From assembly GCA_050951805.1 (NCBI GenBank), contig JBMNJT010000007.1, positions 1-64,000 of the forward strand: DNA of 64,000 nt, given 5' to 3'. The notes under the pieces were generated by a model. It did no database searches. It was not told the origin of the DNA and saw nothing but the letters and a program-made list of their open reading frames with translations. This document shows, piece after piece, positions 21,996 to 51,818 of this stretch. Both the position numbers and the translations under genes were made by a program. Numbering within the stretch: position 1 is the first letter of the stretch; every line of letters starts with the position of its first letter. Source of the DNA: Bacillota bacterium (GTDB lineage: Bacteria; Bacillota; DTU025).

Positions 21996-24087
21996 GTTCG
22001 CCCGGCATGTTTGTTGAGCCGATGGACTGAAAGAAGTCCTGTCACCTAACCAGCGGGAAGACAACCCCAAGGCAAGGGCGTCGCTGGTAACGGCGGGGTC
22101 TGAAGGAAGCTTTAAGGGGGAACACGGAACGTAGCGAAAGCGAACCGAAGTTGGCCTGTCAGGTGGGTAACCTTGCGAAGTATGGGAAAGCCCGAAAGCT
22201 GGATAACCTGGGGGGTTTTGACGGACGGGTTCGTGTTCAGGCAGACAAACTTAACCGGGGAAGCCCTGCATCATCCAGATAGCTGGTAAGCCCAAACAAG
22301 CGGAGACGCAAGGATGGGAATATGTGGTGTGGGGTGGCAGATGAGTCCGTAGTAGTTATGAACCCTCAGCCCATGAAAGCTGGCAACAGACCGGAGGATA
22401 AAACTGAGGGGACAGCGGCCGGGAGCTGCTGGGCTGCATAGGCCAAAAGCCTATGCAGTTGCGAAGGGACGAAGGCAAACCAAAGCGTGCAACCTAGTTA
22501 CAGGCAAGCATGGGAGAGAGATAACAGAGGCTGAAATGCCGATGGGAACGGGGGAGCCGGGGGCGACGAGTCTGCTGGTCCCTGCGCCCGCTCAGCAGAG
22601 TATCAAAGTTTCGCGGGGTAGATTGCCTTAGAGCTAGAGACGCCTCGCAGGCCTTGGGAAGAAACTGCAACCATGCAAGCTTGATGGCCAAGGAAGCACG
22701 GCGAGATGAAGGAGCTAATTGATGAAACACTACAGCTTGATCGATAAGGTTTACCGGATGGATAACCTTAGAGCTGCATACAGGGCCGTCAGGGCCAACA
22801 ACGGGGCTCCCGGGATAGACGGTGAGACCGTGGACGCCTTCGGCGAGAACCTGGAAGCCAGGCTGGCAGAGATTTATCAGGAGCTCAGATCAGGATCTTA
22901 CGAACCAAGTCCGGTGCGGCGGGTAGAGATACCGAAGCCAGACGGAAGCAAAAGGCCTCTTGGCATACCCACCGTTGGCGACAGAGTAGTGCAGCAAGCG
23001 CTGCTCAATGTGGTTCAGCCAATCTTCGACCCCGAATTCCATCCATCGAGCTATGGGTACCGACCCGGGCGATCCTGTCATCAAGCAGTGGCAAAGGCAG
23101 AGAGGTTCATTAATCGCTACGGTCTCAAGCACGTAGTGGACATGGACTTGTCAAAATGCTTTGACCGACTCGATCATGACCTGATCATTGAGTCTGTGAA
23201 CCGAAAGGTCAGCGACGGAAGCATACTTAAGCTGATCCGGAAGTTCCTTGAAGCAGGAGTCATGAAAGACGGGGCCTGGGAGGAAACAACCATAGGCAGT
23301 CCGCAAGGCGGAGTAATATCGCCTCTTCTTGCCAATATCTATCTTGACTACTTTGATCAAAAGATGAAGTCAAAGGACATCAGGATAGTGAGGTACGCTG
23401 ACGATATACTCATCTTTGCGCGGACAAGGCGACAGGCGGAAAAGTTCTTGGAGATAGCGTGCGAGATCCTTGAGGGCGAGTTAAAGCTCGTTGTGAACAG
23501 GGATAAAACGCACATAACCAGCGTCTATAAGGGAGTGCCCTACCTTGGGTTTGTCATATACCCTAAGGTAGTAAGCATACACCCCAAGAAGCTGGCGAAG
23601 TTCAAGGACGCCGTCCGCAAGCTGACTCCCCGCAATCATGGGATGAGTGTTGAGCAGATGGTGAAGCGACTGAACCGATTCCTTCGTGGATGGATCAACT
23701 ACTTTCGAATTGCGAACTGCAAGACGATAGTAGCCAGCCTGATGGGGTGGATAAGGCGGCGTCTGAGGATGAAGCAGATGAGGGAGTGGAAGAGCTGGAG
23801 GGGCCTGCATAAAGCACTTCGAAGGCGAGGCTACTCAGGCGAATTCCTAAAGATATCCATGAGACGATGGAGGAACTCGGCAAGTCCTCTGGTCAACATG
23901 GCGCTTCCTCAGGCTTGGTTCAGTGAGATAGGACTGATTGACCTCACGAAGTATGAGGTCGGCGTCTTGCATCTCTTCTATGAAGCGAAGTGACTAAGGT
24001 TTGCCAGGAGCCGTGTACGGGGCCCGTACGCACGGTTCTGTGAGAGGGATGACGCCAGGCTGATTACCTGGCGCCACCCTACTCGAT
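21996..24087 (+). mobile_element. group II intron, class C-like, full length (copy 1, 2092 nt)
   Basis: 5' GTTCGCCCGGCATG; D5 GAGCCGTGTACGGGGCCCGTACGCACGGTTC (24008-24038); D6 with bulged A ending CTCGAT; RT ORF in D4; boundaries defined by three copies. Confidence 0.95.
22719..23993 (+). CDS. ltrA: group II intron reverse transcriptase/maturase, no endonuclease domain
   Basis: GAPGIDG (RT0), RPLGIPTVGDRVVQ, GSPQGGVISPLLANIYL, YADD, thumb/X domain RGWINYF. Confidence 0.96.
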   Translation: MMKHYSLIDKVYRMDNLRAAYRAVRANNGAPGIDGETVDAFGENLEARLAEIYQELRSGSYEPSPVRRVEIPKPDGSKRPLGIPTVGDRVVQQALLNVVQPIFDPEFHPSSYGYRPGRSCHQAVAKAERFINRYGLKHVVDMDLSKCFDRLDHDLIIESVNRKVSDGSILKLIRKFLEAGVMKDGAWEETTIGSPQGGVISPLLANIYLDYFDQKMKSKDIRIVRYADDILIFARTRRQAEKFLEIACEILEGELKLVVNRDKTHITSVYKGVPYLGFVIYPKVVSIHPKKLAKFKDAVRKLTPRNHGMSVEQMVKRLNRFLRGWINYFRIANCKTIVASLMGWIRRRLRMKQMREWKSWRGLHKALRRRGYSGEFLKISMRRWRNSASPLVNMALPQAWFSEIGLIDLTKYEVGVLHLFYEAK

Positions 24088-24142: not shown

Positions 24143-25726
24143 CTAGAAATCGCGGCCCTCTCCCATAACGAGAGCCCTGTAGGCAACCTCTGTCTTTTCC
24201 TGATAGCTTCCACTGCGATCCAAGGCATATGCACGCCCCATCGCCGTTACCACTTCTACATTCATCCCTGACGGGATCTTTGCCTCAAGAATCTCTAGTA
24301 GATCAGCAGCACCCTGTGGCGGACTGCTTCGACCATCAAGGATCAGATGAAGCCAAGCCCGTCCAATTCCTTTTTCCGCTGCTGCTCTGAGCACTGCAAT
24401 CCCCTCGTCCATATTCCCGTGAGAGCTCCGTTCCGACAGCATAGCTATTACATGAATATCGCCGCCATGGCTCCGCGCCGCTTCAAAGCCGTAATTGACT
24501 GCCTCATTCTCTTTGAGCCCTCCAGCGCCAACAGCCTGCGAAATCCGGAGTTCGTCTTGGGGAACAACCCGCCCGGCGCCGAGAGTTAGATGCCCGGTCT
24601 CCGAATTGCCTGACCTTCCCTTTGGCAAACCAACGGCCATCCCAGCCGCAGCCAGAGTCATATATGGACATTCCTTCCTCATTCTGCTCATACACGGCGT
24701 GTTGGCAACTGCAATCGGGTTGATGGTTGAATCATCTATGCCAACTCCCCATCCATCCAAAATAACCAATACCAGTCGATCATAAGTTCCCTCATGGACG
24801 GCGCGGCACTTGCCGGTCATCTCCTCGGGCACAGGTACGCCCATCATGCTCAACAGCGTGGGCGCAACATCTGCAAGGGTGGCATCCTCCGCCGCCCTCA
24901 GTTGCACAGACGGCCCTCCGGTCGCCAACACCAAGCCGAACGGCACACGACTACATGTATGGCTAAGGTTGTGGCTCCCATCTTCATTCACAAACCTCTC
25001 GAGCAGCCCATGATCTGCAGTTACAGCAACTGCATAACCATGTTGAGCCGCAGCTAGGCATATGGTGCTGAGCGCTTGATCTACCGCTTCAGCACAGAGC
25101 ACATTAGCATTCCAATCATCCAGATGCCCAATGATGTCCCCCGCCGCTAGGTTCACAAGGATGAAGTGCCTGCTATAACCACTGGCGTTCGCAGCAGCCA
25201 TCGAGCGCTCAGCTTCGAGGGCAACTTCCACCGTGCTCGTAGCCGGTTTCGAGACAAATTCTGATGAGTGGGGACTTGGCACAGTAATCCACTCTTCATT
25301 GGCATACGGTGCAACGCGCCTGCCATTGAAAAAGAACGTAACATGCGCCGCCTTCTCCGACTCGGCAATCCGCGTCTGCGCCACGCCGGCCTGACTCAGC
25401 GCCTCACCCATGGTTCCTTCAGGACGAAGAGTCGGAAAGATTGTGGGCAACTCAGCAAATTTCTCATGATATTGCACCAACGGAACAACGCTCAGATCAG
25501 GCATGGGTTCCGTTTCGAATTGATCAAATAGCGGGTCAGCTAAGGCCTCTGTGAGCTGTCGTTCACGGTCCCCACGCCTGCAACAAAAGAATAGAGAATC
25601 GCCATTCTTTATCTTGCCCACAGGCTTGCCATCGACGACGCGAGTCAGTGGAGTCATCCAGTAATCCATTTCTCCCCGGCTGTAGCACTCTCTCAAAGCC
25701 TGCTGCAAAGAAGCTGTTGTCTGCAC
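24143..25726 (-). CDS. circularly permuted 2,3-bisphosphoglycerate-independent phosphoglycerate mutase-like protein (GpmI family)
   Basis: Canonical C-terminal motifs (AESEKAAHVTFFFNG, GDIIGH, TADHG, SHT, LADVAPT, EMTGK) come before canonical N-terminal motifs (LVILDGWG, GLP..GNSETGH..GAGR, LDGR, GRAYALDR). Confidence 0.9.
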   Translation of the reverse strand: MQTTASLQQALRECYSRGEMDYWMTPLTRVVDGKPVGKIKNGDSLFFCCRRGDRERQLTEALADPLFDQFETEPMPDLSVVPLVQYHEKFAELPTIFPTLRPEGTMGEALSQAGVAQTRIAESEKAAHVTFFFNGRRVAPYANEEWITVPSPHSSEFVSKPATSTVEVALEAERSMAAANASGYSRHFILVNLAAGDIIGHLDDWNANVLCAEAVDQALSTICLAAAQHGYAVAVTADHGLLERFVNEDGSHNLSHTCSRVPFGLVLATGGPSVQLRAAEDATLADVAPTLLSMMGVPVPEEMTGKCRAVHEGTYDRLVLVILDGWGVGIDDSTINPIAVANTPCMSRMRKECPYMTLAAAGMAVGLPKGRSGNSETGHLTLGAGRVVPQDELRISQAVGAGGLKENEAVNYGFEAARSHGGDIHVIAMLSERSSHGNMDEGIAVLRAAAEKGIGRAWLHLILDGRSSPPQGAADLLEILEAKIPSGMNVEVVTAMGRAYALDRSGSYQEKTEVAYRALVMGEGRDF

Positions 25727-25771: not shown

Positions 25772-26836
25772 TTATTTGGGGAAAACCAAGCCGTTCTGGA
25801 TAAACGCACGGGTGCGGTCGCCAGGCTCAAACCTCATTGAGGAATTCGTCTGGACCCTGAGAAGATCCTCGCCAATTCGAACCCGGTATTCGATGACATT
25901 TCCGAGGAATATCCTTACGTCCACTTCGCATTCGACCCCTTGTTCGGTCCCCAGGATGATATCCTCCGGCCTGATAGCGAGGATATAGTCTCCTTTGTTC
26001 ACCGATGATCCGTCAAGATCAAACTCCGCCCCGCCACGAAGGCGAATGTCGATGCCTTTTTCAGTCTTGCCAGTCACACTGCAGGGAACGAAGTTCATAG
26101 TCCCTATGAAGTCGGCAACGAACTTGTCCTTCGGCGTTTCATATATGTCATGAGGCGCACCCTCCTGCACTACTTTGCCGGAGTTCATTACGGCAACCCG
26201 GTCTGACATGGCCATTGCCTCAACCTGGTCATGAGTAACATACAAAATGGATATTCCCGTCTTGCGCTGAATGTCTTTGAGCTCAAAGCGCATCTGCTCT
26301 CGCAGTTTCGCATCGAGATTGGAAAGAGGCTCATCAAGCAGCATAACCCTTGGGTCGGTAGAAAGCGCTCTCCCCAATGCAACGCGTTGCTGCTGTCCAC
26401 CGGAGAGTTCCGATGGGAACCTTCTTTCCAAGCCCTCGAGTTCAAGTAGGTCTAGCAAGTAAGCCATTTTAGCATTGATCTCTTCTTTTGGCCTTTTCGC
26501 CAGCCGAAGGGGGTAGGACATGTTCTGTTCTACTGTCATATGCGGCCATACTGCGTAGTTTTGAAAGACCATTCCTATGCCCCGGCGCTCAGGCGGCACC
26601 ATCACGTTTTTCTCCGGCGAAGTTACCAACTGACCGCTTATGTGTATCTCGCCCTCAGTGGGCTGCTCCAACCCTGAAATGCACCGGAGTGTTGTCGTCT
26701 TCCCGCATCCAGAGGGCCCCAGAAGCGAGAAGAACTCGTTCTCATGAACTGTAAAGCTCACATCGTGAACTGCTGTAAACGTCCCAAACCGCTTGACTAG
26801 GTTTGAAACCTTGATTCGTTCTTCCACCCTTGCCAC
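25772..26836 (-). CDS. ABC transporter ATP-binding protein (FbpC/AfuC/PotA type, TOBE domain)
   Basis: GPSGCGKTT, LSGGQQQR, LLDEPLSNLDA, YVTHDQ. Confidence 0.94.
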   Translation of the reverse strand: MARVEERIKVSNLVKRFGTFTAVHDVSFTVHENEFFSLLGPSGCGKTTTLRCISGLEQPTEGEIHISGQLVTSPEKNVMVPPERRGIGMVFQNYAVWPHMTVEQNMSYPLRLAKRPKEEINAKMAYLLDLLELEGLERRFPSELSGGQQQRVALGRALSTDPRVMLLDEPLSNLDAKLREQMRFELKDIQRKTGISILYVTHDQVEAMAMSDRVAVMNSGKVVQEGAPHDIYETPKDKFVADFIGTMNFVPCSVTGKTEKGIDIRLRGGAEFDLDGSSVNKGDYILAIRPEDIILGTEQGVECEVDVRIFLGNVIEYRVRIGEDLLRVQTNSSMRFEPGDRTRAFIQNGLVFPK

Positions 26837-26849
26837 CTCCGCATACCGT

Positions 26850-28538
26850 TCACATACTGATTTCGCCTTTTGAAAGCTTCCGCACGATTGCGTTGCCAGC
26901 CAAGATCACAAGCAAAACAATCGTAGACAACGCCGCAGCTATCTGGGTGTACCCGGCATCTTGCATGTTGTATATAACCACTCCTATAGTCTCAGCGCCC
27001 TGTGACCACAGAAGAACGGACATGGTCAACTCCCTCAGAGCTGGCATGAAAACCAGGATCCACCCGGCTATGAGGCCAGGTTTGATCAACGGCATCACAA
27101 TGTCTTTCATTGTCTGAGTCCATCCTGCCCCGGAAACCCGCGCAGCTTCCTCAAGCGAAACATGCACCTGCTGAAGAGTCGCGTTGGTAGTGCGAATCGA
27201 AAATGGCATGTACCGCACTAGGTAAGCCGCAAGTATGACCCATATCGTGCCGTAAAGCATCACAGGGGGTCGCGACCAGGCCAAGATCATGGCAATTGCC
27301 ACCATAGTACATGGCACCGCGTAAGGTATGGTTCCTACGAAGTCGAGAGTCTTGGCTCCCTTGATCTTGGCCCGCACAGACATGTAAGATACCAAAGCTC
27401 CAACGGCCATGGTGATTGTGGCAGCAGAAACCGCCAGGAACAAGCTGTTCCTAAATGCCCTGGATGCCATGGGCAGATCCAAAATGTATTTGTAATGACT
27501 CGTAGTCATATTCGCAAGGTTCAGCGGTGCGCCCCAGTATTTGAGGAATGAAGTCAAAAGCATCGATATCAGCGGAACTACCCCTGCAAAAAGCGATACG
27601 AGGACAACGATGATAAGGACAGGGATCCGCCAACCGCCTAGACTCATTGTTTGAGGCCTGACGCTCTTGCCCGCAATCACTGTATACCTGCTTTGCCCAC
27701 GCTCCAGTCTCCTCTCGAGAATAAGGGGAATCCCAGATGTAATCGCCAGGATAACCGCCATCGCAGTCGCCAATGGCATATCCGGTATGGACAGAGCGGA
27801 GTATATCTTCGTAGTCAACACGAAGAACCGGGCCCTGAACCCAAGAAGAGCCGGAATTCCGAAGTTGGATATGCAGCCGACAAACGCAAGCAATGCGCTA
27901 GCTGTGATCGCAGGCGTGATCAGTGGCATAGTTACATCTATGAGAGTCCTAAACGGACCTGCGCCAGACATCCTCGCGGCTTCTTCTAAGCTCGTATCGA
28001 TCTTGCCAAGCGCCCCACTCACAGTTATGAAAACGACGGGAAACTGATATACAGCGAGCACTAATACTACCCCGGCAGCACTGTATATGTTCCACGGAGC
28101 AGATGTCGCGCCCGTAAGCGTCATATATAGCTTAGATACGTAACCTACTGGTCCAAAAAGCTGAGCCCACGCCATCGCACCAATGAACGGCGGTATGCCA
28201 TACGGCAGCAGGAGCAGCATCCTCAACCACGACTTGCCCGGGATATCTGTTCGGACAACGAGCATAGCCAGGATAGTGCCTACAGCCACACATATCAGAG
28301 TAGACAGAGACGAAACCCAGATGGAATTCCAAAAGGCTTTAAGATTGGCTGACTCAGAGAAGATTTTCACATAGTTTTCGAAAGTAAAACCCGCCTCAGA
28401 ACTGAAACTCTTAACTACAACAAGGGACAGAGGGTACACGATGACGACCAGGAAGAACAGCCCAATGATGGCCATGAACACATAGCGTACATCCATAGAT
28501 CGTCGTCCAACTGCTGTGTCCGTATTCAATCGAATCAT
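26850..28538 (-). CDS. ABC transporter permease, fused two-domain (FbpB/AfuB type)
   Basis: Two EAA motifs (SLEEAARMSGA, SLEEAARVSGA); start ATG 28538 or TTG 28529 after AGGAGG. Confidence 0.92.
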   Translation of the reverse strand: MIRLNTDTAVGRRSMDVRYVFMAIIGLFFLVVIVYPLSLVVVKSFSSEAGFTFENYVKIFSESANLKAFWNSIWVSSLSTLICVAVGTILAMLVVRTDIPGKSWLRMLLLLPYGIPPFIGAMAWAQLFGPVGYVSKLYMTLTGATSAPWNIYSAAGVVLVLAVYQFPVVFITVSGALGKIDTSLEEAARMSGAGPFRTLIDVTMPLITPAITASALLAFVGCISNFGIPALLGFRARFFVLTTKIYSALSIPDMPLATAMAVILAITSGIPLILERRLERGQSRYTVIAGKSVRPQTMSLGGWRIPVLIIVVLVSLFAGVVPLISMLLTSFLKYWGAPLNLANMTTSHYKYILDLPMASRAFRNSLFLAVSAATITMAVGALVSYMSVRAKIKGAKTLDFVGTIPYAVPCTMVAIAMILAWSRPPVMLYGTIWVILAAYLVRYMPFSIRTTNATLQQVHVSLEEAARVSGAGWTQTMKDIVMPLIKPGLIAGWILVFMPALRELTMSVLLWSQGAETIGVVIYNMQDAGYTQIAAALSTIVLLVILAGNAIVRKLSKGEISM

Positions 28539-28590
28539 CCCCCTCCTACAATGGGCTGGGGTACACTGCATACAGTAATGTACTCCCCAG

Positions 28591-29455
28591 ATCGAGTAGG
28601 GTGGCGCCAGGTAATCAGCCTGGCGTCATCCCTCTCACAGAACCGTGCGTACGGGCCCCGTACACGGCTCCTGGCAAACCTTAGTCACTTCGCTTCATAG
28701 AAGAGATGCAAGACGCCGACCTCATACTTCGTGAGGTCAATTCATCTCGCCGTGCTTCCTTGGCCATCAAGCTTGCATGGTTGCAGTTTCTTCCCAAGGC
28801 CTGCGAGGCGTCTCTAGCTCTAAGGCAATCTACCCCGCGAAACTTTGATACTCTGCTGAGCGGGCGCAGGGACCAGCAGACTCGTCGCCCCCGGCTCCCC
28901 CGTTCCCATCGGCATTTCAGCCTCTGTTATCTCTCTCCCATGCTTGCCTGTAACTAGGTTGCACGCTTTGGTTTGCCTTCGTCCCTTCGCAACTGCATAG
29001 GCTTTTGGCCTATGCAGCCCAGCAGCTCCCGGCCGCTGTCCCCTCAGTTTTATCCTCCGGTCTGTTGCCAGCTTTCATGGGCTGAGGGTTCATAACTACT
29101 ACGGACTCATCTGCCACCCCACACCACATATTCCCATCCTTGCGTCTCCGCTTGTTTGGGCTTACCAGCTATCTGGATGATGCAGGGCTTCCCCGGTTAA
29201 GTTTGTCTGCCTGAACACGAACCCGTCCGTCAAAACCCCCCAGGTTATCCAGCTTTCGGGCTTTCCCATACTTCGCAAGGTTACCCACCTGACAGGCCAA
29301 CTTCGGTTCGCTTTCGCTACGTTCCGTGTTCCCCCTTAAAGCTTCCTTCAGACCCCGCCGTTACCAGCGACGCCCTTGCCTTGGGGTTGTCTTCCCGCTG
29401 GTTAGGTGACAGGACTTCTTTCAGTCCATCGGCTCAACAAACATGCCGGGCGAAC
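28591..29455 (-). mobile_element. ORF-less group II intron derivative (copy 3, 865 nt)
   Basis: Same 5' end, D1-D3, D5 and D6 as copy 1, with a 1227 nt deletion (copy 1 positions 22711-23937) removing the RBS, start and most of the RT ORF; junction at about 28740/28741. Confidence 0.92.
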
Positions 29456-31547
29456 ATCGAGTAGGGTGGCGCCAGGTAATCAGCCTGGCGTCATCCCTCT
29501 CACAGAACCGTGCGTACGGGCCCCGTACACGGCTCCTGGCAAACCTTAGTCACTTCGCTTCATAGAAGAGATGCAAGACGCCGACCTCATACTTCGTGAG
29601 GTCAATCAGTCCTATCTCACTGAACCAAGCCTGAGGAAGCGCCATGTTGACCAGAGGACTTGCCGAGTTCCTCCATCGTCTCATGGATATCTTCAGGAAT
29701 TCGCCTGAGTAGCCTCGCCTTCGAAGTGCTTTATGCAGGCCCCTCCAGCTCTTCCACTCCCTCATCTGCTTCATCCTCAGACGCCGCCTTATCCACCCCA
29801 TCAGGCTGGCTACTATCGTCTTGCAGTTCGCAATTCGAAAGTAGTTGATCCATCCACGAAGGAATCGGTTCAGTCGCTTCACCATCTGCTCAACACTCAT
29901 CCCATGATTGCGGGGAGTCAGCTTGCGGACGGCGTCCTTGAACTTCGCCAGCTTCTTGGGGTGTATGCTTACTACCTTAGGGTATATGACAAACCCAAGG
30001 TAGGGCACTCCCTTATAGACGCTGGTTATGTGCGTTTTATCCCTGTTCACAACGAGCTTTAACTCGCCCTCAAGGATCTCGCACGCTATCTCCAAGAACT
30101 TTTCCGCCTGTCGCCTTGTCCGCGCAAAGATGAGTATATCGTCAGCGTACCTCACTATCCTGATGTCCTTTGACTTCATCTTTTGATCAAAGTAGTCAAG
30201 ATAGATGTTGGCAAGAAGAGGCGATATTACTCCGCCTTGCGGACTGCCTATGGTTGTTTCCTCCCAGGCCCCGTCTTTCATGACTCCTGCTTCAAGGAAC
30301 TTCCGGATCAGCTTAAGTATGCTTCCGTCGCTGACCTTTCGGTTCACAGACTCAATGATCAGGTCATGATCGAGTCGGTCAAAGCATTTTGACAAGTCCA
30401 TGTCCACTACGTGCTTGAGACCGTAGCGATTAATGAACCTCTCTGCCTTTGCCACTGCTTGATGACAGGATCGCCCGGGTCGGTACCCATAGCTCGATGG
30501 ATGGAATTCGGGGTCGAAGATTGGCTGAACCACATTGAGCAGCGCTTGCTGCACTACTCTGTCGCCAACGGTGGGTATGCCAAGAGGCCTTTTGCTTCCG
30601 TCTGGCTTCGGTATCTCTACCCGCCGCACCGGACTTGGTTCGTAAGATCCTGATCTGAGCTCCTGATAAATCTCTGCCAGCCTGGCTTCCAGGTTCTCGC
30701 CGAAGGCGTCCACGGTCTCACCGTCTATCCCGGGAGCCCCGTTGTTGGCCCTTACGGCCCTGTATGCAGCTCTAAGGTTATCCATCCGGTAAACCTTATC
30801 GATCAAGCTGTAGTGTTTCATCAATTAGCTCCTTCATCTCGCCGTGCTTCCTTGGCCATCAAGCTTGCATGGTTGCAGTTTCTTCCCAAGGCTTGCGAGG
30901 CGTCTCTAGCTCTAAGGCAATCTACCCCGCGAAACTTTGATACTCTGCTGAGCGGGCGCAGGGACCAGCAGACTCGTCGCCCCCGGCTCCCCCGTTCCCA
31001 TCGGCATTTCAGCCTCTGTTATCTCTCTCCCATGCTTGCCTGTAACTAGGTTGCACGCTTTGGTTTGCCTTCGTCCCTTCGCAACTGCATAGGCTTTTGG
31101 CCAATGCAGCCCAGCAGCTCCCGGCCGCTGTCCCCTCAGTTTTATCCTCCGGTCTGTTGCCAGCTTTCATGGGCTGAGGGTTCATAACTACTACGGACTC
31201 ATCTGCCACCCCACACCACATATTCCCATCCTTGCGTCTCCGCTTGTTTGGGCTTACCAGCTATCTGGATGATGCAGGGCTTCCCCGGTTAAGTTTGTCT
31301 GCCTGAACACGAACCCGTCCGTCAAAACCCCCCAGGTTATCCAGCTTTCGGGCTTTCCCATACTTCGCAAGGTTACCCACCTGACAGGCCAACTTCGGTT
31401 CGCTTTCGCTACGTTCCGTGTTCCCCCTTAAAGCTTCCTTCAGACCCCGCCGTTACCAGCGACGCCCTTGCCTTGGGGTTGTCTTCCCGCTGGTTAGGTG
31501 ACAGGACTTCTTTCAGTCCATCGGCTCAACAAACATGCCGGGCGAAC
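29456..31547 (-). mobile_element. group II intron, class C-like, full length (copy 2, 2092 nt)
   Basis: Near-identical reverse complement of 21996-24087; its 3' end directly abuts the 5' end of copy 3. Confidence 0.95.
29550..30824 (-). CDS. ltrA: group II intron reverse transcriptase/maturase
   Basis: Protein identical to 22719..23993. Confidence 0.96.
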   Translation of the reverse strand: MMKHYSLIDKVYRMDNLRAAYRAVRANNGAPGIDGETVDAFGENLEARLAEIYQELRSGSYEPSPVRRVEIPKPDGSKRPLGIPTVGDRVVQQALLNVVQPIFDPEFHPSSYGYRPGRSCHQAVAKAERFINRYGLKHVVDMDLSKCFDRLDHDLIIESVNRKVSDGSILKLIRKFLEAGVMKDGAWEETTIGSPQGGVISPLLANIYLDYFDQKMKSKDIRIVRYADDILIFARTRRQAEKFLEIACEILEGELKLVVNRDKTHITSVYKGVPYLGFVIYPKVVSIHPKKLAKFKDAVRKLTPRNHGMSVEQMVKRLNRFLRGWINYFRIANCKTIVASLMGWIRRRLRMKQMREWKSWRGLHKALRRRGYSGEFLKISMRRWRNSASPLVNMALPQAWFSEIGLIDLTKYEVGVLHLFYEAK

Positions 31548-31552
31548 AAAGA

Positions 31553-31578
31553 GGCGGTGCGGCCTCAGTCGCACCGCC
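31553..31578 (-). terminator. intercistronic stem-loop after the SBP gene; target of intron copies 2/3
   Basis: Minus strand GGCGGTGCG-ACTGAGGC-CGCACCGCC-TCTTT, then the intron 5' end. Confidence 0.7.
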
Positions 31579-31608: not shown

Positions 31609-32589
31609 CTATTTGAACATTATTTTCTCGAAGGTCTCCCTTATAGCAGACGCGTTATCAGCCGCCCATTGGAATGGAACGGGCATCATCTTTATTTTAT
31701 CTGCCGTAGGCATTCCCTTCGGAGGAGCTACATCTGGCCTCACTGGTATCACACCATCATTGACCAATAGCTCCTGCCCCTTCTTCGAGAGAGTGAAGTC
31801 TACAAATGCCTTGGAGGCCTCAAGATTCTTTGACCCAGCAACTATCGCTACCGGACTCGGAATTGAGACCGCACCGTCGGCAGGCCAGACAAAATCAACC
31901 GGCGCTCCCGACTTCTGAAGGTCATAAATCATGTAGTCCAGCACCATGCAGGCTGCAAATTCGCCAGCAGCCAAACCTCTCGAAACATCTGAATTGCCCC
32001 TGAGAACCTGTATTCCAGATTTTCGCGCTTTCTCGTACCAGCTCCAACCTTTGTCTCTTTGAACAAAAGCCGCTGCAACAGTGAAGTTGGAACCAGAATA
32101 GAGGGGGTCCGCCATTGCGGCGCGAGAACCAAACCCGAGCAAGTCATCCCAAGTCTTTGGCTCGGATCCTTTCTTGACTAAATTGGTGTTTATTCCAATT
32201 ACCATGTTAATCATGCGAGCGCCTGTAAAGTATCCGTCAGGGTCCTTGATTGCTGAAGGAATGCGGGCGGCTTCCGGCGATTTGTACGGATATAGCAAGC
32301 CCTTGTCCTTGAATGCGTAGTAGCTTGCAGCATCAGCCAGCCATATTACGTCGGCCCTTATACCGCCAGCATCAGCCTCAGCCCATATCTTGTTGACCAC
32401 ATCAGTGCTTCCAGCTCGAAAAACTTCCACCTTGATCCCTTTATTCGCCTTCATGAATTGGTCTGCGAAGTTCGTAGCGAGTTCCAGTGGAACAGACGTG
32501 TAAAGCAGGACCTTCGACTCAGCAAATACACCAGTAGAGATCGACAGCAACAATACCAAAGCCAGGACTATTACACTGCCCCTTTTCAT
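31609..32589 (-). CDS. ABC transporter substrate-binding protein (AfuA/FbpA/PgtC-like)
   Basis: Signal peptide MKRGSVIVLALVLLLSISTGVFA; LLYTS, RAGS, ADVIW, DPLYSGS, AFVDFTLSKKGQ; ATG at 32589 after GAGG. Confidence 0.88.
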   Translation of the reverse strand: MKRGSVIVLALVLLLSISTGVFAESKVLLYTSVPLELATNFADQFMKANKGIKVEVFRAGSTDVVNKIWAEADAGGIRADVIWLADAASYYAFKDKGLLYPYKSPEAARIPSAIKDPDGYFTGARMINMVIGINTNLVKKGSEPKTWDDLLGFGSRAAMADPLYSGSNFTVAAAFVQRDKGWSWYEKARKSGIQVLRGNSDVSRGLAAGEFAACMVLDYMIYDLQKSGAPVDFVWPADGAVSIPSPVAIVAGSKNLEASKAFVDFTLSKKGQELLVNDGVIPVRPDVAPPKGMPTADKIKMMPVPFQWAADNASAIRETFEKIMFK

Positions 32590-32666
32590 GTTCAACCCGC
32601 CTCTCTTTTGATTGGTGGTATACTTGGTTAACCCCCACTCGCGCAGGGGCACGACCAGCGAATCAA

Positions 32667-33998
32667 CTAGTCATGCAACTTGATCTTTCGAGCCACCTTT
32701 AGCACTTCTTCTTCTAGATCGATAGAAGCATCTGTAGGAATAGGCTCATTATCGATATACACGATCTCAAGCCCCTTACGTACCGCCCATTCAGTCACAA
32801 CATCTACTGCAGCAGCCTTGAGTTCAGAGACGATTGCATCAGGCTTCAACGTTTCAAAACGCGCCAGGTCCTCTCGGAGCAGCGGCCTGTTCGAAAGGTG
32901 CGAGCTAACTCCAACAACCTCACATCCATAAGTCTTCTCAAGATAAGCAGATATGGCATCTGTCATCACCGCAGGCGTAGTTAGAGTGAGGACTATTCTC
33001 TTACCGGTAATATCGCCAATCGGGCGAGGTCTGAAAATGGTCTTCACCACCGTGCATCCGGCGTTTATCTCGTGAATGGCTTCTACCATCTCGTCAATCT
33101 TAGCTTGGTCAACCATTGGAGACTCACACATTGTAAGAACAATTAAGTCGGAGGTAAGAATACGATAAGGCCCGAGGTAAGAGCGCATATACTCTACGGG
33201 TTGGTGAGCACCGATGACTAGTATGCGCGCATCCGTGTGCACCGAAGGTATAGATGAACCGCTGCCTTCGAATATGACTATGTCGGCGTCGATCTTTTCC
33301 GACAGTTCAGCACCTCTGTCCACATTTGAGACAAAAGTCTGTCCCGACATCCCGCCTCCACACCGTCGACAGCCGATGGTTGTAACCCTTGAGGTAAGCA
33401 GATCCTCGAAATGGTCAGACGATGCATGGCGCCCTTGTTTGCTAACGGACAACAAATACTCGGGCGTGATCTCAATCTCAGACGCGCTGAGCAGCTCAGG
33501 CTCTGCAGGACCACCCCGCCCCATGGTAACCACGACGGGGTTATACTTCTTCGCCAGCGTCCGCGCGACAAAACCGCCGACAGCAGTCTTTCCGATTCTC
33601 TTCCCGGTTCCTATGACCGAGATACTCGGCCTGCTTACGCGCGCCGCCTCTACAGGAGGAGTGAACTGGAAATCCGCGCCCCGGTAAGCGACACCCTTTG
33701 CAAGCACATTGCTGGCAATCTCAAACCGCTCCTTGTAGCCAACTACAGGCTCGTCGCTAAGATCAACAACCTCATCCGGATCGTATTTGTCTATAGCGGC
33801 TGCGATAGCATGGAGATAGTCATCCTCATGCACTACAGGAACTCCAAGTCTGGCAAGATCAGAATCAGAACCAATCTTCTCAGTGCCGCCAATGAAAACG
33901 GCAGCCAATATGTCGAGCTCCCCCTTGAGCACCTCTATGGCATCATGAGTTACCGCAGGGTAATGCTCACCGTCTGTAAGTACAATAGCTTTCTTCAT
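32667..33998 (-). CDS. cpgS: cyclic 2,3-diphosphoglycerate synthetase
   Basis: DGEHYP, FIGGTEK, DLSDEPV, GTGKRIGKTAV, MGRGGP, HASSDHFED, GCRRCGGG, EGSG, HLSNRPLLR, ELKAAAVDV, all matching the archaeal cDPGS family as recalled. Confidence 0.9.
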   Translation of the reverse strand: MKKAIVLTDGEHYPAVTHDAIEVLKGELDILAAVFIGGTEKIGSDSDLARLGVPVVHEDDYLHAIAAAIDKYDPDEVVDLSDEPVVGYKERFEIASNVLAKGVAYRGADFQFTPPVEAARVSRPSISVIGTGKRIGKTAVGGFVARTLAKKYNPVVVTMGRGGPAEPELLSASEIEITPEYLLSVSKQGRHASSDHFEDLLTSRVTTIGCRRCGGGMSGQTFVSNVDRGAELSEKIDADIVIFEGSGSSIPSVHTDARILVIGAHQPVEYMRSYLGPYRILTSDLIVLTMCESPMVDQAKIDEMVEAIHEINAGCTVVKTIFRPRPIGDITGKRIVLTLTTPAVMTDAISAYLEKTYGCEVVGVSSHLSNRPLLREDLARFETLKPDAIVSELKAAAVDVVTEWAVRKGLEIVYIDNEPIPTDASIDLEEEVLKVARKIKLHD

Positions 33999-36062: not shown

Positions 36063-36148
36063 TGGTGCCGGAGGCGGGATTCGAACCCGCACGTCCTTGC
36101 GGACAGAGGATTTTAAGTCCCCTGCGTCTGCCTTTCCGCCACTCCGGC
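36063..36148 (-). tRNA. tRNA-Leu(TAA)
   Basis: GCCGGAGTGGCGGAAAGGCAGACGCAGGGGACTTAAAATCCTC...GGTTCGAATCCCGCCTCCGGCACCA; long variable arm, CCA encoded. Confidence 0.96.
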
Positions 36149-51744: not shown

Positions 51745-51818
51745 TGGCTGGGGCGCCAGGATTCGAACCTGGGCTGCAGGATCCAAAGTCCCGTGCCTTA
51801 CCTCTTGGCTACGCCCCA
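51745..51818 (-). tRNA. tRNA-Gln(TTG)
   Basis: TGGGGCGTAGCCAAGAGGTAAGGCACGGGACTTTGGATCCTGCAGCCCAGGTTCGAATCCTGGCGCCCCAGCCA. Confidence 0.96.

Follow-up and report, generated by a model that had tools for sequence, protein, structure and literature searches.

A spacer-less pair of class C group II introns, one full-length and one without a reading frame, between two genes of a transporter operon

Results

A full-length intron is joined head to tail to an ORF-less copy

The 64,000-nt stretch of Bacillota bacterium DNA analysed here (the window; positions 1 to 64,000 of contig JBMNJT010000007.1, assembly GCA_050951805.1) contains, at 28591..31547 on the minus strand, two group II introns that follow each other without a single intervening base. 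The upstream intron is full-length and encodes a reverse transcriptase (RT); the downstream one is a derivative without an open reading frame (ORF). Together they make up 2957 nt of intron sequence in sense orientation between the solute-binding protein (SBP) gene and the permease gene of an ABC transporter operon. The reality of the pair is confirmed, and it probably arose when an intron inserted for a second time at a hairpin that already carried one. Three full-length and five short copies of the intron are relevant to this account; the window holds the following, where D stands for intron domain.

29456..31547 (-): copy 2, full-length class C group II intron of 2092 nt (sequence, Rfam, copy alignment)
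28591..29455 (-): copy 3, 865-nt derivative without the ORF that comprises D1-D3, D4 as a compact stem-loop, D5 and D6 (Rfam, alignment, fold)
28740..28742 (-): deletion junction of copy 3 at about window position 28741, joining intron positions 715 and 1942 with a 1-nt ambiguous overlap, common to all 5 short copies (alignment)
29456..29537 (-): D5-D6 of copy 2 (RF00029, 48.7 bits; fold of -44 kcal/mol, z -4.97)
21996..24087 (+): copy 1, full-length intron with 5 differences from copy 2 (Rfam, alignment)

At the joint, read on the minus strand, copy 2 ends in CCACCCTACTCGAT at 29456 and copy 3 begins with GTTCGCCCGG at 29455, so that the spacer is 0 nt; a longer read-out of the 3' end of copy 2 is CTACTCGAT, followed directly by GTTCGCCCGG. 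The copy alignment shows copy 3 to be positions 1-715 of copy 2 fused to positions 1942-2092, which makes it 1227 nt shorter. Copy 3 departs from copy 2 at two bases, intron positions 445 and 655, where it agrees with copy 1. The identity of the 865 nt of copy 3 to copy 2 cannot be chance. What copy 3 has lost is a Shine-Dalgarno-like GGAG, the ATG at intron position 727 and the whole RT frame except its last 19 codons (stop included). Because the two ends of the deletion sit side by side at the base of D4, the short form folds into a compact D4 hairpin.

D1 (RF02001, 61.7 bits; cut-off 32 bits) and D5-D6 (RF00029, cut-off 40 bits) score alike in copies 1, 2 and 3. D6 is a long bulged stem-loop in the predicted fold, and its stem stops 2-3 nt ahead of the junction. 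Its bulged A, A76 (window 29462), is the presumed branch point and the seventh nucleotide counted back from the 3' end. The initial annotation of this DNA had described a spacer-less dimer of a full-length intron and an ORF-less copy, with all ribozyme domains kept in copy 3 and 1227 nt lost from it, including the ribosome-binding site and start of the RT, and a 2957-nt sense insert between the SBP and permease genes. The sequence at 29456/29455, the Rfam matches, the copy alignment and the gene calls with their coordinates confirm this anatomy at each point examined.

The intron family is assigned to class C

The coding capacity of copy 2 lies in a single frame.

29550..30821 (-): RT/maturase frame of copy 2, 423 aa from the ATG, with YADD at residue 225 (RVT_1 and GIIM in Pfam; TIGR04416)

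The TIGR04416 match reaches 428 bits against a cut-off of 300, and the Pfam search returns RVT_1 and GIIM alone, with no endonuclease domain. The closest relatives of known structure are the GsI-IIC RT (6ar1, E 8.4e-103) and then 7uim, 5hhj and 5hhl, all of which we take, by the depositors' molecule names, to be class C proteins. The IIA and IIB proteins LtrA (1e-46) and 6me0 (1.8e-44) score far below the GsI-IIC RT. The close relationship to the GsI-IIC RT, the missing endonuclease domain and the position of 12 of 12 genome copies behind a hairpin (see below) together indicate that the family is class C (IIC). The RT protein is intact and identical in all three full copies, and hence the 4 nucleotide differences that fall inside the RT frame among them are all synonymous.

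Details of the ribozyme can be set beside those given for IIC introns in PMC1702495. AGGAA is present (UCUGAAGGAAG) in a stretch whose counterpart in the Rfam D1 model is the conserved UCUGAAGGAAG, and we take this stretch to be the epsilon-prime region of that paper. D5 is about 31-32 nt long and has AGC at the position where CGC is given as the IIC norm. The intron starts with GUUCG.

The pair lies behind a conserved hairpin, and the site is empty in relatives

The flanks of the pair contain the following features.

31553..31578 (-): target hairpin in the 5' exon, stem arms GGCGGTGCG and CGCACCGCC, 9 bp of GC and an 8-nt loop (fold; conserved in G001, G002 and G008)
31548..31552 (-): TCTTT at the very end of the 5' exon, its last four bases (CTTT) being the presumed intron-binding site 1 (IBS1) (sequence, flank consensus)
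28556..28590 (-): start of the 3' exon, where a second hairpin (CTGGGG...CCCCAG) precedes AGGAGG and the beginning of the permease gene (sequence, relatives, fold)

The target hairpin begins about 30 nt past the stop codon of the SBP gene, and the intron pair follows 5 nt after it. In the terminator scan it appears terminator-like solely when the intron's own GTT is included. A hairpin as insertion target had been part of the initial annotation, and the rest of the genome (8 contigs, 2.75 Mb) bears it out. All 12 genome copies or fragments with a 5' end follow an inverted repeat. In 10 of these cases the upstream 45-mer folds at or below -19.6 kcal/mol, which is reached by at most 0.7% of a background of 1000 45-mers from the same genome and places these hairpins in the lowest 1%. 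Among related introns in other genomes, 16 of the 21 with enough flank lie at or under the 5th percentile of their own background, and most sit behind terminator-like hairpins with T runs.

Between hairpin and intron, the unpaired tail measures 0-7 nt across sites. Among the 11 other copies, the flanking base at -1 is a pyrimidine (11/11), that at -2 a T (10/11) and that at -3 a T (7/11); the one motif that the exon ends have in common is YTTY-like. The first base of the 3' exon may be A, G, C or T among copies, which suggests that it is under little constraint. GAAG at about position 266, tried as a candidate for the exon-binding sites EBS1/EBS3, fits most exons and not all of them, and we make no claim for it.

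Relatives show the site before insertion. In two genomes of the same genus (G001 and G002) and one of the same family (G008), the hairpin and its tail (TCGTT in G001, or similar) are joined directly to the 3' exon. In three further relatives (G004, G014 and G016) the flanks are about 290-513 nt apart, too near to hold either unit. Compared with the empty sites of relatives, the pair has no target duplication.

The ORF-less form is a family of five copies

A non-autonomous, trans-mobilised element was what the initial annotation had seen in copy 3, and the genome-wide comparison supports this. The search for further 865-nt copies with the same deletion gives 5 in total, so copy 3 is not unique. 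All five have the one 715/1942 junction and precise bounds, and they lie behind 5 different hairpins in different flanks. The sites of two further short copies are empty in G001 and G002, one to within 2 nt and the other as a diverged 180-nt spacer that is too small for an intron; with the pair site counted, three short-copy sites are empty in relatives. The five copies with one junction, the empty sites and the three intact, identical RTs lead us to infer that the short form is a non-autonomous family, mobilised in trans by the intact RT.

Wherever the 8 young copies vary at a position that copies 1 and 3 share, these two have the same base, and copy 3 has the majority base at every site variable within the short family. 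A single deletion followed by spread is the simple reading. The same deletion may have arisen repeatedly, since sites 223, 445, 458 and 655 are polymorphic in long and short copies alike; sites 223 and 445 occur in all four allele combinations. These shared polymorphisms reflect either recurrent change or exchange between copies. The same genome also holds older ORF-less relics whose junctions differ, for example 682/1934.

As a separate observation, two copies on genome contigs C3 (143717-145566) and C4 (101073-102895) are about 94-99% identical to the full intron, lack positions 641-770 and 879-922, and keep open frames of 408 and 404 aa. They may represent a second coding subfamily.

Head-to-tail junctions recur in metagenomes

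A search of metagenomes with a pattern that combined the conserved 3' end and the 5' start of the intron returned the head-to-tail junction in 28 stretches on 27 contigs. In 14 of these, at least 300 nt are present on either side of the joint; in the remaining ones the joint is close to a contig end, as assemblers produce for a cycle. One contig (L076/L077) holds a 2105-nt unit with a joint at each side, which makes a run of three or more class C introns. Another array is a dimer of two identical 1860-nt units with unique flanks, located behind a terminator. L083 (minus strand, 90-2575), also behind a terminator, has a 624-nt ORF-less unit followed by a 1862-nt full unit, the reverse order of the present pair; its two units are 82.5% identical in D1-D3 and identical over the last 72 nt. 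A 2191-nt contig that is 98.5% identical to the present intron spans the joint. This recurrence suggests that stacking at hairpins is the rule for class C introns.

Four loci (L035, L050, L053 and L002, the last on contig C73 of G022) have intron 5' and 3' parts that are about 1.9-3.3 kb apart. The extra DNA in L002 begins with the D1 of another intron. These loci may be twintrons or other insertions.

The transporter genes are intact, and RNA contigs hint at splicing

The operon that hosts the pair comprises three genes.

31609-32652 (-): solute-binding protein gene, with phnS2-like and thiamine-type matches under their cut-offs (profile search)
26850-28571 (-): fused double permease gene with two BPD_transp_1 domains (Pfam, NCBIfam)
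25772-26836 (-): ABC ATPase gene (Pfam)

Along the minus strand the order is SBP gene, hairpin, TCTTT, intron pair, second hairpin, AGGAGG, permease and ATPase, all in one orientation. The introns interrupt no reading frame, all three transporter genes are intact, and the permease retains its own AGGAGG and start codon. Splicing is therefore not strictly required for expression of the transporter. What expression does require is transcription through about 3 kb of structured RNA, the last 0.9 kb of it untranslated. The initial annotation had held that the operon depends on read-through or on splicing in one of several forms; its read-through part stands, and splicing as a requirement does not. 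A scan for an outward promoter gave 3 promoter-like sites against 2.5 expected by shuffling, and thus no evidence for one.

The pair would be co-transcribed with the operon. Copy 2 would then splice first, via its native hairpin exon; the exon end facing copy 3 in the unspliced pair is CGAU. Excision of copy 2 would hand the hairpin-CUUU exon back to copy 3, and sequential splicing in this order would yield exactly ligated exons. We regard it as the natural route.

In two metatranscriptome studies, a contig that joins 28590 to 31548, skipping exactly 2957 nt, is found in 2 of 2 RNA runs and in 0 of 2 DNA runs. The finding hints at splicing but does not prove it. Joints that skip 2092 or 865 nt could not appear in contigs of a repeat, so their absence is uninformative. 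Contig depth was not used as a measure of copy number, as depths sum other organisms and repeats.

The pair probably formed by two insertions at one hairpin

We put at roughly 0.65 the probability that the pair results from two retrohoming events at one hairpin, the second insertion taking place upstream of the resident intron. The intron ribonucleoprotein would recognise the DNA hairpin, a few pyrimidine-rich bases behind it and, in the 3' exon, a single base. A site already occupied would retain nearly the whole target, which is mostly 5' exon, and it is because nearly all target recognition lies there that we favour re-use of the hairpin. A second particle would have reverse-spliced between hairpin-CTTT and the G that opens the resident intron, leaving a head-to-tail pair with no spacer and no target duplication. 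The downstream short copy would have come first and the upstream full copy second.

The flank bases speak for this order. CTTT fits the flank consensus at -1, -2 and -3, and CGAT, the end of copy 2, fits it at -1 alone, with A at -2; for this reason an upstream insertion is favoured over one that used D6 of copy 2. Both routes had been proposed in the initial annotation, and repeated use of the hairpin fits these bases better than use of D6 does. Elsewhere in the genome, a short copy (contig C4 16381-17245) and the 51-nt remnant of an older intron share one hairpin; the copy sits after GTTC, the first 4 bases of the remnant. The remnant is 80% identical to intron positions 5-55, and the region (C4 16330-17260) is a second case in this genome of one hairpin used twice.

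Several points weigh against two uses of the hairpin. Some of them fit an alternative in which the full copy came first and the short copy reverse-spliced behind it, via the D6 stem-loop plus GAT. Both routes yield an identical junction. The D6 region of copy 2 folds at -21.0 kcal/mol, the stability of real targets, and its stem ends at a distance from the 3' splice site that is inside the 0-7 nt range of other sites. One other copy (C4 101073) follows GGAT. We nevertheless consider the D6 route unlikely: of the 11 other sites, one has A at -2 and three have G at -3, whereas CTTT matches the consensus throughout, and a D6 that made a good target would predict introns behind more of the 10 intact 3' ends in the genome. 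The single 3' end that leads into another intron is that of the pair, a count that tells against re-use of the hairpin and against the D6 route alike. Among related introns in other genomes with a 30-nt 3' flank, 0 of 37 run into another intron, and none of the relatives has a single intron at the pair site. Copy 3 has no private substitution and thus carries no age signal; an attempt to date the two units by substitutions gave no order, given this and the four allele combinations at 223/445. Covariation across 14 related introns aligned with their exon ends gave no clean signal for EBS1/EBS3. The RNA contigs with joined exons have 9 flank mismatches to the window, and they may derive from an intron-free strain, not from splicing. 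Finally, DNA contigs confirm the outer exon-intron joints, and the internal junction rests on the assembly, spanned by none of the contigs listed.

This last point would suit an assembly artefact, in which there is one real intron and the assembler threaded in a second repeat copy. The intron is indeed a multi-copy repeat, and the listed contigs break at repeat ends, with none shown to span 29455/29456. An artefact is very unlikely all the same. The two units differ by a 1227-nt deletion and 2 substitutions, and the 8-contig assembly resolves twelve or more intron copies in distinct flanks. DNA contigs of two studies extend from the permease flank 30 nt into the intron 3' end and from the SBP flank 25 nt into the intron 5' end, and no empty form of the site is present among them. 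The same junction is seen in 28 independent metagenome stretches, including the one that is 98.5% identical to the present intron. The internal junction is thus supported by the differences between the units and by its recurrence in metagenomes.

Two further explanations concern the history of the sequence. Recombination or gene conversion between dispersed copies might have made the pair or its present sequence, and the four allele combinations at sites 223/445 do point to recurrent change or to copies that exchange sequence. By homologous exchange, single copies at dispersed sites can reshuffle an existing exact head-to-tail joint but cannot create one, and we hold this origin to be highly improbable. 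The pair might also have moved as one composite 2957-nt intron that took its 5' end from copy 2 and its 3' end from copy 3 and came from a dimer at another location. The sole joint in the RNA contigs is the loss of the whole 2957 nt, and class C introns can use non-adjacent splice sites in vitro (PMC1702495). Yet a 3' end is adjacent to a 5' end just once in the genome, with no second dimer, and we give a composite hardly any credence. Two insertions at the one hairpin remain the account that we prefer.

Other features of the window

Copy 1 ends 56 nt from the 3' end of a phosphoglycerate-mutase-like frame of 527 aa (24143-25726, minus strand), whose domain order is seemingly swapped in the profile search: the frame opens with the metalloenzyme part (profile 212-501) and closes with iPGM_N (profile 1-130). 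A 443-aa frame at 32667-33998 (minus strand), between a GntR/UTRA regulator gene and the SBP gene, has no Pfam or NCBIfam match. Two tRNA genes on the minus strand match RF00005 in Rfam, at 51748-51818 (66.7 bits) and 36066-36148 (57.7 bits).

Discussion

The pair leaves the understanding of how group II introns work unchanged. Its components are already in print: hairpin targeting by class C introns, ORF-less families moved in trans, tandem integration and twintrons. New is a fixed natural heterodimer of a full and an ORF-less class C intron in an operon spacer, together with evidence for widespread arrays, and even this may have been described before. In the literature searched, tandem group II integration was found in one 2025 report on a IIB1 intron only, and class C tandem arrays were not found, though central class C papers may describe them. 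One natural case here joins the probable re-use of an occupied hairpin, an ORF-less family that would ride on its parent's RT and the transcribed spacer of an intact operon. Stacking of this kind inflates intergenic spacers and may impose polarity on operons.

A bolder idea, which we think rather improbable, is that the heterodimer is a launch pad for driver and passenger, that copy 3 is the master of the 865-nt family and that such arrays are the raw material for circularly permuted group II introns. An RT tends to bind the RNA from which it is translated. As copy 3 is directly 3' of the RT-coding copy in one transcript, it could capture the RT, and its majority bases at the variable sites of the short family and identity with copy 1 make it a possible master copy. 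Circularly permuted group II introns were reportedly described in 2021; if the idea is true, spacer-less arrays would contain a ready permuted unit, D5-D6 followed by D1-D4 without the ORF.

The present intron resembles B.h.I1 (Toor et al. 2006, PMC1702495) and GsI-IIC, with a small RT lacking the endonuclease domain, insertion a few bases past a stem-loop, a presumed IBS1 that is short and pyrimidine-rich, and AGGAA in what we take to be the epsilon-prime region. It differs from IIC introns of the B.h.I1 type in its GUUCG start, which is not GUGYG, and in the AGC, not CGC, of D5. IIC introns like B.h.I1 lie behind terminator hairpins, whereas the present target is an intercistronic hairpin inside an operon, and hence the intron is in a transcribed spacer.

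For the short form, the nearest parallel is TeI3 of Thermosynechococcus elongatus, with 17 ORF-less copies that have common D4 deletion break-points and ORF remnants and for which the RT of related full-length copies acts in trans, in splicing as in mobility (Mohr et al. 2010, PMC2882425). Both systems have many ORF-less copies with one D4 deletion, 17 there and 5 here. TeI3 is of the IIB1 chloroplast-like class, uses sequence-specific sites and forms twintrons, in contrast to the tandem pair described here. Mobilisation in trans was established by experiment for TeI3, and for the present family it is suggested by the copies and their sites.

For the joint itself, the parallel is EcKTE56.groEL, a IIB1 intron of E. 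coli that integrates in tandem upstream of a resident intron in experiments, the first G of the resident acting as IBS3 (PMC12584367, Mob DNA 2025;16:41). Tandems made up 22.4% of integrants for the ORF-deleted form versus 4.2% for the full form, and about 3% of the intron-containing reads of the native host strain (PMC12584367). The exact spacer-less joint behind the same 5' exon is common to both systems. EcKTE56.groEL has a long EBS1/EBS2 pairing, one fixed site (the groEL stop codon) and an engineered ORF-less form. The present introns, in contrast, are class C with hairpin targets, their heterodimer is natural and fixed, and the ORF was deleted naturally. Finally, the twintrons and nested arrays of Methanosarcina acetivorans (PMC4424553) also consist of related introns that home repeatedly to one place. 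There the introns are nested inside one another and spliced inner first, whereas here they stand side by side, each intact.

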